64,000 nt of DNA from Escherichia coli O157:H7 (lineage in GTDB: Bacteria > Pseudomonadota > Gammaproteobacteria > Enterobacterales > Enterobacteriaceae): the NCBI RefSeq assembly GCF_013167455.1, contig NZ_CP038328.1; one strand, given 5' to 3'. The position numbers are program-made. Of this stretch, positions 48,401-51,400 are shown piece after piece. Each line of letters begins with the position of its first letter. Positions within the stretch are counted from its first letter, which is position 1.

Positions 48401-51400
48401 CTTTCAGTGGATTTCGGATAACAGAAAGGCCGGGAAATACCCAGCCTCGCTTTGTAACGGAGTAGACGAAAGTGATCGTGCCTACCCGGATATTATCGTG
48501 AGGATGCTTCATTACCATTGCTCCCCATATACAAAACCAATTTCAGCCAGTGCCTCGTCCATTTTTTCGATGAACTCCGGCACCATCTCGTCAAAACTCG
48601 CCATGTACTTTTCATTCCGCTCAATCACGACATAATGCAGGCCTTCACGCTTCATGCGCGGGTCATAGTTGGCAAAGTACCAGGCATCTTTTCGTGTCAC
48701 CCACATGCTGTACTGCACCTGGGCCATGTAAGCCGATTTTATGGCCTCGAAACCACCGAGCCGGAACTTCATGAAATCCCGGGAGGTAAACGGGCATTTC
48801 AGCTCAAGGCCGTTGCCGTCACTGCATAAACCATCGGGAGAGCAGGCGGTGCGCATACTTTCGTCGCGATAGATGATCGGGGATTCAGTAACATTCACGC
48901 CGGAAGTGAACTCAAAGAGGGTTCTGGCGTCGTTCTCGTACTGTTTTCCCCAGGCCAGAGCCTTAGCGTTAACTTCCGGAGCCACACCGGTGCAAACCTC
49001 AGCCAGCAGGGTGTGGAAGTAGGACATTTTCATGTCAGGCCACTTCTTTCCTGATCGGGGTTTTGCTATTACGTTGTGAATTTCTGAAGCTGTGATGACG
49101 CCGAGCCGTAATTTGTGCCACGCATCATCTCCCTGTTCGACAGCTCTCACGTCGATCCCAGTACGCTGCAGGATAATGTCCGGTGTCATGCTGCCACCTT
49201 CTGTTCAGTGGCTTTTTGTTTCAGGAATCCAAGAGCTTTTACTGCTTCGGCCTGTGTCAGTTCTGACGATGCACGAATGTCGCGGCGAAATATCTGGGAA
49301 CAGAGCGGCAATAAGTCGTCATCCCATGTTTTATCCAGGGCGATCAGCAGAGTGTTAATTTCCTGCATGGTTTCATCGTTAACCGGAGTGATGTCGCGTT
49401 CCGGCTGACGTTCTGCAGTGTATGCGGTATTTTCGACAATGCGCTCGGCTTCATCCTTGTCATAGATACCAGCAAATCCGAAGGCGAGACGGGCACACTG
49501 AATCATGGCTTTATGACGTAACATCCGTTTGGGATGCGACTGCCACGGCCCCGTGATTTCTCTGCCTTCGCGGGTTTTGAATGGTTCGCGGCGGCATTCA
49601 TCCATCCACTCGGTAACGCAGATCGGATGATTACGGTCCTTGCGGTAAATCCGGCATGTGCAGGATTCATTGTCCTGCTCAAAGTCCATGCCATCAAACT
49701 GCTGGTTTTCGTTGATGATGCGGGACCAGCCATCAACGCCCACCACCGGAACGATGCCGTTCTGCTTATCAGGGAAGGCGTAAATTTCTTTCGTCCACGG
49801 ATTAAGGCCGTACTGGTTGGCGACGATCAACAATGCGATGAACTGCGCATCGCTGGCATCACCTTTAAATGCCGTCTGGCGAAGAGTGGTGATCAGTTCC
49901 TGTGGGTCGACAGAATCCATGCCGACACGTTCAGCCAGCTTCCCTGCCAGCGTTGCGAGTGCTGTACTCATCCGTTTTATACCTCTGAATCAATATCAAC
50001 CTGGTGGTGAGCAATGGTTTCAACCATGTACCGGATGTGTTCTGCCATGCGCTCCTGAAACTCAACATCGTCATCAAACGCACGGGTAATGGCTTTTTTG
50101 CTGGCCCCGTGGCGTTGCAAATGATCGATGCATAGCGATTCAAACAGGTGCTGGGGCAGGCCTTTTTCCATGTCGTCTGCCAGTTCTGCCTCTTTCTCTT
50201 CACGGGCGATCTGCTGGTAGTAACGCGCCCAGCTCTGAGCCTCAAGACAATCCTGAATGTAATAAGCGTTCATGGCTGAACTCCTGAAAATGGCTGTGAA
50301 AATATCGCCCGCGAAATGCCAGGCTGATTAGGAAAACAGGAAAGGGGATTAGCGATTCAGGCCGTTACCGCGTCCGTCGAGAAAAACTTCCACGAGCAAA
50401 TCACGGGTATAAGTGCGCTCGATGCCGCGATGCAGATAAAGCCGTCCGCGTAAATTAGCTGATGCAGTCCAGGTACCATCTTTGTGTTTGACCAGCATTC
50501 CTGGCATGACCGCACCTCGATTAACGGTCTGCGTTCCGTAATGTTGATGAACCATAAAAACTCCTGCCCGTAAGCTGGGCTGCTGAACATATAGAGACTT
50601 CTGCGCGTATTCAGGCGGTGGATGGCCGCCGGTTGTCATAACTAAGTCGCCTCGTTGAAGCGACTGAGGTATGAAGTGTTGAGTTGATTTCAGCTGGTCA
50701 CACCGACGTTCACGCGTCCGCTTCACCCCTCGCACTCCCCGGAGCCTGCTGAAATTCAAGCTGCGGATCTAAGCGGTCATCGCAACGGTGAAGTTATAAA
50801 TTTTGTGATACCAACATCGATGCAATAGCATGACAATAGCAATGGCTATTGGTGTAGTCAATAGCAATTAGTATTGATAATGTTTGATATACTTGTTCTG
50901 ATTGATAATTAAATGAATTTTTATAAAAAAGAGTATGAAGACTTATTGGTGTGGCTGAAATTTGTACAGCTTTAATGTGCCTCGTGACAGAGGGGCATCG
51001 GGTTGTGGTGAACTCGGTAGGTTGGCAGCAAATTTAATCGAATATTGGTAGTCTGAGTTCTTATGTGTATTTTTTTAGTCAGTTGCTAAATGATACATAA
51101 ATGACTTATTAGCCCCGCCATCGCTTTGTACGGGGCGTTTATTTAATTTATCTTTTCAACATTTCCATGAATCAACAAGTCGTAGGCAAGAAATAGTTTC
51201 CTATACTGGGTTTTTAAATTGTCAACGTCGCATGCCTTGAATTGAACAAACGCTTCTTTTTTAACATAATCTTCAATCTCCTCTTTGGGGATATTTTTTA
51301 TGTTCTTAATGACTATAGACAATTCTTTGTACTTTTTGAACGTTGCATCCTTTATATCTTTGATGTTGGTGTAAATTTTATTTGCATTGATTTTATCTAA

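Follow-up and report, generated by a model that had tools for sequence, protein, structure and literature searches.

Layout of the immunity region

The 64,000-nucleotide stretch of contig NZ_CP038328.1 analysed here (the window) carries a lambdoid prophage of O157:H7-type Escherichia coli, inserted at mlrA/yehV. Read from right to left, its immunity region consists of a cI-like repressor gene, a SIR2 cargo gene in the rexAB slot, a hairpin, oL/pL, a 270-nt leader and then kil, gam, bet and exo (Table 1). Counting ORFs of at least 60 aa, a single frame of 136 codons lies between gam and the SIR2_2 gene, in agreement with an earlier note on this DNA. The prophage occupies mlrA, the Stx1-phage site, and stx is missing where it would be expected; IS1203 lies within bet in some O157 strains. 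As cro is frameshifted by a 5-bp deletion, the prophage's own regulation may no longer function.

The 380-bp spacer at 50760-51142 is AT-rich, as described previously, with a GC content of 35-41% against about 50% in its flanks. The suggestion that it holds pL and oL is supported by a predicted sigma-70 promoter facing away from cI, and by putative operators that recur at oR: the inverted-repeat pairs I1, I2 and I6 and the repeat family D1 tie 50831-50882 to 53594-53665, and the 36-nt arm 50832-50867 is 78% complementary to 53594-53629. The pL hexamers align across relatives of other immunities, the equivalent position in Perceval reading TTGATA-17-TATTAT.

The SIR2-like gene, previously placed where N would follow pL, in fact lies upstream of pL, between cI and oL/pL. 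Its product appears to be a full-length member of the PADLOC candidate defence system PDC-S25 (E = 2e-235, residues 1-528 on profile positions 1-526 of 528), while the match to Thoeris ThsA is confined to the SIR2 core (E = 1e-21). As in the lambda rexAB slot, a low-GC gene co-oriented with cI is followed by a hairpin, and the slot is filled by other cargo in relatives; unlike in lambda, it encodes one SIR2_2 protein rather than RexA and RexB. The hairpin probably ends the cI-SIR2 (pRM) transcript, and a clear terminator occupies the corresponding site in Perceval (L001 5826-5809).

Table 1. Features of the immunity region and leftward early operon, in window coordinates
Feature	Position	Strand	Description
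Intrinsic terminator	47835..47853	-	First convincing one of the leftward operon; 8-bp stem and TTTTATTGTT; between the orf61-like and TraR/DksA genes
gam	49977-50273		
136-aa ORF	50349..50759	-	Mechanical call; first 68 codons are transcribed leader with no conserved coding
kil	50349..50555	-	68-aa KilR/phi80-type Kil (PHROG 294, tblastn, PGAP); ATG at 50555
Shine-Dalgarno	50561..50565	-	AGGAG, 5 nt 5' of the kil ATG; read from sequence
Hairpin H3	50566..50580	-	GCCC-AGCUUAC-GGGC, directly 5' of the kil Shine-Dalgarno; putative, read from sequence
MTTGGHPPP ORF, start	50613..50639	-	Small upstream ORF: ATG ACA ACC GGC GGC CAT CCA CCG CCT
Hairpin within ORF start	50630-50614	-	GGCGG-CCAUCCA-CCGCC
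Hairpin H1	50642..50668	-	9-11 bp, just 5' of the upstream ORF; structure conserved with compensatory changes
Leader	50676..50791	-	Lineage-specific and conserved, between pL and the hairpin/upstream-ORF module; encodes a spurious Arg-rich peptide
oL	50823..50876	.	Repeated GCTATTG/CAATAGC half-sites; 21-bp palindrome 50845-50865 across the -35
pL	50833..50861	-	-35 TTGACT (50861-50856), 17-nt spacer, TG-extended -10 TATTGT (50838-50833); predicted start near 50826
Hairpin	51112..51136	-	GCCCCG...CGGGGC, just 3' of the SIR2 stop; read from sequence
SIR2_2-domain gene	51143..52750	-	Low-GC cargo; Pfam PF13289, E 1.2e-23; GC 28-33%
cI-like repressor gene	52857..53585	-	HTH and S24 peptidase; Pfam PF00717 and PF01381; PGAP: XRE family regulator
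oR/pR	53594..53665	.	Operator half-sites as at oL; pR TTGATT-17-TATTAT at 53600-53628

The 136-codon frame and kil

The frame between gam and the SIR2 gene runs without a stop from TTG 50759 to 50349 on the minus strand, and its translation begins MNFSRLRGVRGVKRTRERR. PHROG 294 aligns with residues 1-67 of the protein encoded by the last 68 codons (E = 1.8e-38 to 1.7e-37, profile positions 13-79 of 83), and tblastn identity is 85% to HK225 Kil and 39-40% to phi80 Kil and HK639 gp41. The NCBIfam model NF008465, 'FtsZ inhibitor protein', aligns its positions 1-67 of 73 with residues 69-133 of the long ORF (E = 1.3e-16), although the 60.3 bits of this match fall under a curated cut-off of 92 bits that was built on Rac KilR. 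In the RefSeq/PGAP annotation the same 207 nt, no more and no less, are a 68-aa 'phage encoded cell division inhibitor' (WP_000233577.1). They belong to the leftward early operon and end 75 nt upstream of gam, a position that matches that of kil in phi80, HK225 and HK639. On these comparisons the predicted gene proper is the C-terminal 68 codons (residues 69-136) and the 136-aa call is over-extended. The earlier note had entertained a Kil analogue as one option for the 136-aa protein; this clear relationship to an established Kil family, an outcome for which it had itself allowed, bears that option out and removes the mystery of the ORF. Its statement that no N, cIII or kil can be recognised holds for N and cIII, which have no homologue here, but not for kil. 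No lambda-type Kil or cIII was found: when the window was searched by tblastn with the Kil, cIII, Ea10 and SieB proteins of VT1-Sakai, nothing reached E <= 0.01, and there was no Pfam match.

By homology, the 68-aa Kil would block FtsZ-dependent division, since Rac KilR inhibits FtsZ ring formation and thereby causes filamentation (PMC5793797, PMC12482147). The kilR gene highlighted by a machine-learning study of O157 (PMC12711010) is the Rac-type copy, a different gene from this kil. Like Rac KilR and phi80 Kil, its homologues according to both profiles (E 1e-16 to 2e-38) and BLAST, the protein is about 70 aa long and is the first toxic product of a leftward early operon, encoded beside recombination genes and behind a long structured 5' leader. 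The Rac kilR leader differs in being unrelated in sequence, in yielding the KilS sRNA and in ending in a terminator, while in phi80 the genes and sites N, nutL and tL1 separate pL from kil, whereas here the leader and then kil come straight after pL.

The upstream half of the frame behaves differently from a gene. In 36 distinct relatives the leader at 50676..50791 is near-identical, in contrast to the operators and the 35 nt next to the promoter, which differ. The variable sites fall on codon positions 1, 2 and 3 in the numbers 10/10/12, with no third-position bias; a CAG to TAG change at 50666 stops the frame in 10 of the 36, and others carry 1-, 2- or 5-nt indels, the last an insertion in one relative. 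The 136-codon frame is thus present as noted earlier, but not as a conserved gene, and its Arg-rich N-terminus is, as far as these alignments indicate, untranslated leader without coding constraint. That the Arg-rich part (…GVKRTRERRCDQLK…) might instead be a divergent N-type motif, with either the ORF or a short peptide begun at GTG 50726 acting as an antiterminator on a boxB in the leader, was the other option raised for this protein, and it is already disfavoured by these interrupted frames. The Arg-rich stretch of lambda N includes RRRERRAEKQ, which the segment KRTRERRCDQ does resemble; GGAG lies 8 nt 5' of GTG 50726, and this codon is ATG in 4 of the 36 relatives. Frameshifts ahead of kil in viable phages, however, add to the case against such a motif, as do the failure of the peptide to match PHROG or Pfam and a tblastn search of 50,697 phage records whose only matches are copies of this leader within the same group of phages. 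A 20-aa peptide would also be without the NusA- and RNAP-binding parts of N, and the RNA signals on which it should act (boxA, a canonical boxB hairpin and a second nut-like copy in the pR operon) were not detected. This reading is accordingly given almost no credence.

A further alternative is that Kil is really 96 aa long, beginning at M41 (ATG 50639) of the long ORF, so that MTTGGHPPP would be its N-terminus rather than the start of a separate upstream ORF. The frame from this ATG does continue into kil, both here and in about 29 of 37 window-type sequences, and Kil is annotated at 93-139 aa in several phages. It is nevertheless broken just 5' of the kil ATG in PhiR30_1 (+1 nt) and Turner (-1 nt), and by a 2-nt deletion in 4 of the 36 relatives, while the MTTGGHPPP ORFs of phi80, HK225 and HK639 end after 20-21 codons, well short of a next gene that is often not kil. 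As M69 also coincides with the start of the family profiles and is preceded by a strong Shine-Dalgarno sequence, the longer Kil seems unlikely, and the 68-aa product is retained here.

Early transcription without N, nut or put

No known device for early antitermination could be found. Searching the 64 kb by tblastn with the N proteins of lambda, phi80 and Sakai and with HK022 Nun gave matches at chance level only, the best of which (E = 0.007) lies inside bet. BoxA-like sequences (YGCTCTTTA-like, at most one mismatch) are absent from 50556-50830 on the minus strand and from the pR operon on the plus strand, the whole 64 kb holding 28 against 25 expected; no boxB-like element is seen in the leader by eye, and no segment of the leader has a second copy in the window, including downstream of pR. 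An Rfam scan of 49900-54500 at E <= 10 returned a chance snoRNA match only. Because Rfam has no put family, as HK022 and HK639 showed when used as controls, a covariance model (R1) was built from nine put RNAs; put is a two-stem RNA with a conserved core, GAACGGCGCG…GTCGG…GGCGGGTTCAGGATGAACGGCAAT, just downstream of pL. This model scores 91-96 bits on control putL and 52 bits on control putR sequences, but with filters off reaches at most 10 bits in window positions 42000-64000 (E = 0.29, in the wrong place). Applied to the 36 loci that share the leader it gives no match at E <= 0.01, and it is negative in three related phages. With no boxA, N or put found, a nutL in the spacer, for which the earlier note had allowed, is not supported.

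The leader differs from each of the familiar arrangements. It shares with lambda N/nutL the place of the first transcribed stretch after pL, where N would be, and a readable Arg-rich peptide, but it has no N homologue, boxA, boxB-like element or second site in the pR operon, and its Arg-rich frame is not conserved. In VT1-Sakai, an Stx1 phage at the mlrA site with a phi21-type N, the order is pL-nutL-N-sieB-ea10-cIII-kil-gam with a lambda-type kil, in contrast to pL-leader-kil-gam with a Rac-type kil here. HK022 and HK639 are likewise N-less lambdoids, and HK639, CobraSix and ABTNLsp11242 share both the Kil family and the hairpin/upstream-ORF module with this prophage; exactly where five loci have put, it carries its 115-nt leader.

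In a consensus-based scan, blind to Rho-dependent sites, the stretch from pL to 47853 yielded no convincing intrinsic terminator. Four weaker minus-strand candidates, at 50406-50390 (in kil), 50324-50307 (kil-gam spacer), 49853-49835 (in bet) and 48448-48426 (a nine-pair stem, six of them GC, without a U-tract), were judged unconvincing. The terminator at 47835..47853 is kept in Perceval (L001 2652-2638). As no convincing intrinsic terminator interrupts the stretch from pL through the recombination genes, kil to exo probably need no antitermination. Once repressor leaves oL, unmodified RNA polymerase would read kil, gam, bet and exo without an antiterminator and would meet the first real terminator about 3 kb downstream. 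With respect to Rho, the C/G ratio, an indicator of rut sites, is 1.2-1.7 over 50725-50635; the phi80 annotation places a Rho-dependent tL1B immediately 3' of the same module, and in Rac it is NusG/Rho that silences kilR (PMC5793797). The suggestion that early-left antitermination works differently here receives weak support from the absence of all the known devices, but on the simplest view the proximal genes do not require one.

This layout could in principle be an artefact of degradation, N and nutL having been deleted from a decaying O157 prophage, as the deletion in cro, the IS1203 insertions in bet and the missing stx might suggest. The N-less order pL-leader-kil-gam-bet-exo is, however, also that of Perceval, 4A7, PhiR30_1, PhiR26_1, PhiR5_1, Turner and IdasGreatGrand, and the identical pL-leader-kil junction recurs in 36 IMG/VR loci and in seven or more phages that were isolated independently and have an intact cro. 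Homology to these phages continues unbroken from gam up to some 35 nt from the pL start, and none of 36 loci and 16 phage records has the same leader together with an N gene between pL and 50791. Since plaque-forming phages (4A7, Perceval and the PhiR series) share the layout, it is a feature of the lineage, a native organisation rather than a product of decay, and deletion is considered very improbable. A native N-less layout, in which the 136-aa ORF is leader fused in frame to a 68-codon kil and no antiterminator is needed from kil to exo, is the explanation that we regard as probable.

It remains the case that the terminator at 47853-47835 stands between the recombination genes and TraR, xis and int, and that terminator-like hairpins separate P from Q in this prophage as well as in Perceval, a viable phage, so that an unrecognised mechanism of read-through may exist. 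One candidate is the leader itself: 50791-50676 might be a new cis-acting antiterminator RNA in the role of putL (HK022, HK639, CobraSix-like), carrying polymerase through 47853-47835 and beyond. A leader that fills the place of put in five loci (pL, put, module), and that is nearly invariant across phages with differing promoters and operators, would fit this role, as would the viability of a lineage with terminator-like hairpins in both early operons. Yet the leader has no similarity to put and no second copy downstream of pR, and in some loci the module stands directly behind a promoter with neither put nor leader between them. Nor does it fold better than shuffled sequences (z = -0.99 for the whole leader and -0.55 for its 151-nt promoter-proximal part), and RNAalifold on 36 leader variants found no compensatory changes, none being available because the diversity is too low. 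An antiterminator RNA therefore seems unlikely, and unassisted transcription of kil to exo remains the preferred reading.

The hairpin and upstream ORF ahead of kil

Between the leader and kil, the predicted hairpin H1 and the putative MTTGGHPPP ORF form a module that is conserved yet unannotated. For H1, 97.3% of cells in the alignment are paired, compared with 25-52% in slid controls; at least 10 different stems occur, five pairs are changed on both sides, and none of 500 shuffles reaches the observed value. The 23-nt MTTGGHPPP motif was detected in 178 IMG/VR loci as well as in phi80, HK639 and HK225, and of the 16 distinct substitutions in its codons 2-9, 9 leave the amino acid unchanged (p about 0.03). 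Where this prophage has H3, relatives have other small hairpins. The module is present in about 42% of complete E. coli genomes, and no paper containing MTTGGHPPP was found in the literature.

In 131 of the 178 loci the module lies 3' of a T-tract in a terminator-like position, and in five it lies 3' of a put RNA. Among relatives, the N-dependent phi80 and the put-dependent HK639 appear to carry it just 3' of an intrinsic terminator, which would gate kil behind antitermination; here this gating terminator is missing, and transcription from pL would reach the module through the 115-nt leader. Any fine control of the toxic Kil might then fall to the leader, through H1, the proline-rich upstream ORF running over the kil start, and H3. 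It is possible, though no more than tentatively proposed, that the module is an undescribed cis-regulator, set by many lambdoid phages at the entry to their delayed-early-left genes, with translation of the proline-rich ORF (perhaps through EF-P or stalling) setting Rho termination or translation of the toxic gene; a weaker variant of this idea is the put-like role for the 115-nt leader considered above. Proline-rich leader ORFs that govern downstream transcription or translation include mgtP in the Salmonella mgtCBR leader. The phage ORF resembles those of the mgtP type in its short length, consecutive proline codons, structured leader and tightly limited downstream gene, but has no sequence relation to them, and its own translation or stalling is putative.

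The question of the ORF is itself a minor one, its outcome being that an over-long call is corrected, a SIR2 cargo gene is put in the rexAB slot and the prophage is joined to a common N-less lambdoid lineage. A shallow literature search found no paper on the early operons of 4A7/Perceval-type phages without N, nut and put, and no discussion of antitermination in Bievrevirus; although about 40% of complete E. coli genomes have the leader, how these phages run an early operon without such devices has seemingly never been asked. Were the 115-nt leader a put-like RNA, the passage of this lineage through its terminators would be explained. The module merits study because it is unannotated and stands ahead of a toxic division inhibitor, the Rac counterpart of which is part of a host stress checkpoint; if the regulatory role proposed for it is true, it could represent a new kind of leader control.

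Identity of the 136-codon reading frame

The stop-free frame on which the earlier note rested exists as described, and its residues 60-135 match PHROG 294, 'Kil protein for bacterial septation inhibition' (E 1.8e-38), as do its last 68 residues alone (E 1.7e-37). Residues 69-133 also match NCBIfam NF008465 ('FtsZ inhibitor protein'), a model built on Rac KilR, at a level under the curated cut-off (E 1.3e-16). By tblastn, the Kil annotated in HK225 is 85% identical, mEp237 Kil 84%, Klebsiella phage copies approximately 81%, and phi80 Kil and HK639 gp41 39-40%. The kil ATG lies at 50555, with AGGAG 5 nt upstream, and the last 207 nt are the 68-aa 'phage encoded cell division inhibitor protein' (WP_000233577.1) of the NCBI pipeline annotation. 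This homology to a known Kil family settles the identity of the ORF, which had been proposed as either a divergent N-like antiterminator or a Kil analogue; the region had been said to lack kil, and instead carries one of the Rac/phi80 type rather than the lambda type. Judged by homology, the frame corresponds to a Kil gene of an ordinary kind that had been annotated before, spuriously extended at its N-terminus.

The leader, i.e. the transcribed stretch from pL to kil, was aligned first among eight phages and then among 36 distinct IMG/VR relatives. Variable sites are spread over codon positions 1, 2 and 3 as 10, 10 and 12; CAG is replaced by TAG at 50666 in 10 of the 36 relatives, a 5-nt insertion occurs in one and a 2-nt deletion in four, and PhiR30_1 (+1 nt) and Turner (-1 nt), both plaque-forming, lose the frame just ahead of the kil ATG. 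The arginine-rich peptide has no match in PHROGs, and tblastn against 50,697 phage records returned nothing beyond the same leader. On the evidence of these alignments and searches, the N-terminal half of the frame is not protein; the ORF is long when called mechanically because a small upstream frame starting MTTGGHPPP is, by chance, continuous with kil in the window. KRTRERRCDQ resembles the arginine-rich motif of lambda N, a similarity that was treated as coincidental.

Organisation of the immunity region

The lambdoid prophage adjoins mlrA (yehV) in O157:H7-type E. coli, and many O157:H7 chromosomes carry identical DNA. A YdaT-domain protein (PHROG 163, 'CII-like activator') is encoded at the cII position (53907-54452, +), and the product of cro is of the YdaS family, which makes the immunity region Rac-like rather than lambda-like. 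The absence of cIII, which had been correctly noted, is consistent with this: tblastn detected no homologue of lambda-type Kil, cIII, Ea10 or SieB in the window. In some O157:H7 strains (e.g. ECP19-598; positions 3566-4779 of the retrieved locus L002) bet of the same prophage is interrupted by IS1203, and it is intact in the window.

Features of the immunity region, leader module and early-left operon (window positions)
Feature	Position	Strand	Basis or remark
cI-like repressor, HTH + S24	52857-53585	-	domain matches
SIR2_2-domain protein, 535 aa	51143-52750	-	domain match
Spacer, 35-41% GC	50760-51142		GC computed
Stop-free frame, 136 codons	50349-50759	-	ORF call
Hairpin H1	50668-50642	-	covariation
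Invariant ATG ACA ACC GGC GGC CAT CCA CCG CC(N) = MTTGGHPPP	starts 50639	-	
Third module part: variable stretch ending in GCGCAGAAGTCT			
Fourth module part: small hairpin			just ahead of next gene's SD
gam	49977-50273	-	Pfam Gam, E 2e-63
bet, then exo	left of gam	-	ORF call
Weaker terminator candidate	50406-50390	-	unconvincing; inside kil
Weaker terminator candidate	50324-50307	-	unconvincing; kil-gam spacer
Weaker terminator candidate	49853-49835	-	unconvincing; inside bet
Weaker terminator candidate	48448-48426	-	unconvincing; 9-pair stem, 6 G-C pairs, no U-tract

The spacer is AT-rich, as had been stated. Within it, GCTATTG/CAATAGC half-sites are repeated at 50823-50876, including a 21-bp palindrome, and recur inverted between cI and cro (53594-53665). 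A leftward TG-extended promoter, TTGACT-17-TATTGT, lies at 50861-50833; the aligned sequence in Perceval is TTGATA-17-TATTAT, and the pL hexamers align across relatives with differing operators. The shared half-sites and the leftward promoter therefore predict pL/oL at approximately 50823-50876, with a start near 50826, in accordance with the suggestion that the spacer holds them. On this placement the SIR2 gene lies upstream of pL and occupies the position of rexAB in lambda, not, as had been supposed, the one where N follows pL.

The SIR2 protein matches the PADLOC candidate defence system PDC-S25 over its full length (E 2e-235), and its gene has a GC content of 28-33%. The same slot in relatives holds an ASCH-domain gene with a hypothetical gene, a membrane protein with a hypothetical gene, a lipoprotein or a HipA-like pair, and is empty in Turner; this difference in cargo among relatives indicates that the slot between cI and oL/pL is a cargo hotspot. 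The stretch just upstream of oL (50900-50970; …ATTTCAGCC…) is partly conserved despite the different cargo genes and operators, and may mark where the slot ends on its left side or where the pRM transcript stops.

Relative to that of 4A7, from which it otherwise differs by one substitution, cro (53660-53882, +) has a 5-bp deletion of one copy of a tandem AGCCC at around 53734, so that the reading frame shifts within the helix-turn-helix region. The PGAP annotation records the gene as frameshifted, and likewise calls this pseudogene in O157 strains. Because cro is frameshifted, the prophage is probably crippled and defective for lytic growth.

Early-left transcription without N

The reported lack of a recognisable N was upheld: as tblastn queries, the N proteins of lambda and phi80, the phi21-type N of VT1-Sakai and HK022 Nun gave no match beyond chance level in the 64 kb. 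Nor did the suggested nutL gain support, as no correctly oriented boxA with at most one mismatch occurs in the leader or the pR operon. An Rfam scan gave no match to put, the HK022-type antiterminator RNA; as a control found Rfam to have no put family, a covariance model was built from nine put RNAs (HK022 putL and putR, HK639 putL and six others). It scores 52-96 bits on controls and at most 10 bits across 42000-64000 with filters off, and detects nothing in Perceval, 4A7, PhiR30_1 or the 36 loci with the window's leader. The window contains no second copy of the leader.

Decay might have produced such a layout. This is excluded by homology at 96.6-99.0% identity in sixteen phage records, unbroken from gam to 50792 (approximately 35 nt short of the pL start), and by the order cI-(cargo)-pL-leader-kil-gam-bet-exo without N in seven phages: Perceval, 4A7 (genus Bievrevirus), PhiR30_1, PhiR26_1, PhiR5_1, Turner and IdasGreatGrand. 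A common lineage thus genuinely lacks N, and we found no published discussion of this.

A mundane explanation is the simplest. A consensus-based scan for intrinsic sites, a method outside whose reach Rho-dependent termination lies, found no convincing terminator from pL to the end of the recombination genes. The first good prediction, an 8-bp stem with a T-run at 47853-47835 (-), falls at the boundary between an orf61-like gene and a TraR/DksA gene, is conserved in Perceval (L001 2638-2652) and has xis and int downstream. By contrast, relatives that use antitermination have a terminator directly ahead of a leader module shared with the window: phi80 has N, then tL1A, then the module, and HK225 and HK639 have an intrinsic terminator followed by the module. 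The lineage has thus probably dispensed with the terminator gate ahead of the kil leader, such that, once repressor is gone, pL transcripts would enter kil-gam-bet-exo unaided. Rho-dependent termination is relevant here because a Rho-dependent tL1B is annotated after the module in phi80 and Rac kilR is held silent by NusG/Rho (PMC5793797).

Terminator-like hairpins were also observed in the rightward operon: one at 57287-57302 (+), in the part of the nin region that separates P from Q, where Perceval has several, and one just past Q (61367-61386, +), probably tR'. Passage of the 47853-47835 terminator and the P-Q hairpins could possibly involve leaky termination, internal promoters or an unrecognised read-through element.

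A conserved leader module

Downstream of the 115-nt lineage-specific part of the leader (50791-50676, -), the sequence at 50675-50595 (-) is common to HK225, phi80, HK639 and phages of Enterobacter, Klebsiella and Salmonella; copies lie at L005 3362-3460, L006 2993-3090 and L004 2742-2800. It is followed by kil in some phages and by unrelated genes in others. In hairpin H1, 97.3% of cells are paired and five pairs show compensatory changes (30 distinct sequences), values reached by 0 of 500 shuffles; slid controls are 25-52% paired, and the pairing is kept by at least 10 different stems.

Variation in the 27-nt core encoding MTTGGHPPP was assessed in loci fetched via an independent anchor sequence. 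Synonymous changes make up 9 of 16 distinct substitutions (p ~0.03), variant L192 retains the peptide although its GGCGG/CCGCC hairpin is lost, and core frameshifts occur in 5 of 178 loci; together these favour a translated leader peptide. After PPP, the length and frame of the peptide vary widely.

In the 178 IMG/VR loci that contain the module, it is closely preceded by a T-tract in a terminator-like position in 131 and by the window's leader in 36. HK022-type put RNA (92-96 bits) lies immediately upstream in 5 (L046 1918-1990, L177, L186, L110 and L105), in the same place as the window's 115-nt leader. K-12 Rac has an annotated small RNA, KilS (L207 3906-4003), which shares its strand with kilR, lies approximately 175 nt ahead of that gene and ends in a terminator; it has no sequence relation to the window's leader, but indicates that the kilR leader of Rac, too, is long and contains a terminator.

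A search of 5426 complete E. coli genomes found the module in 2274, and it lacks annotation in 29 of 30 records among the matches listed; no mention of the MTTGGHPPP peptide was found in the papers searched. Of more interest than the ORF itself, then, are this unannotated hairpin/MTTGGHPPP leader and terminator read-through in a lineage without N.
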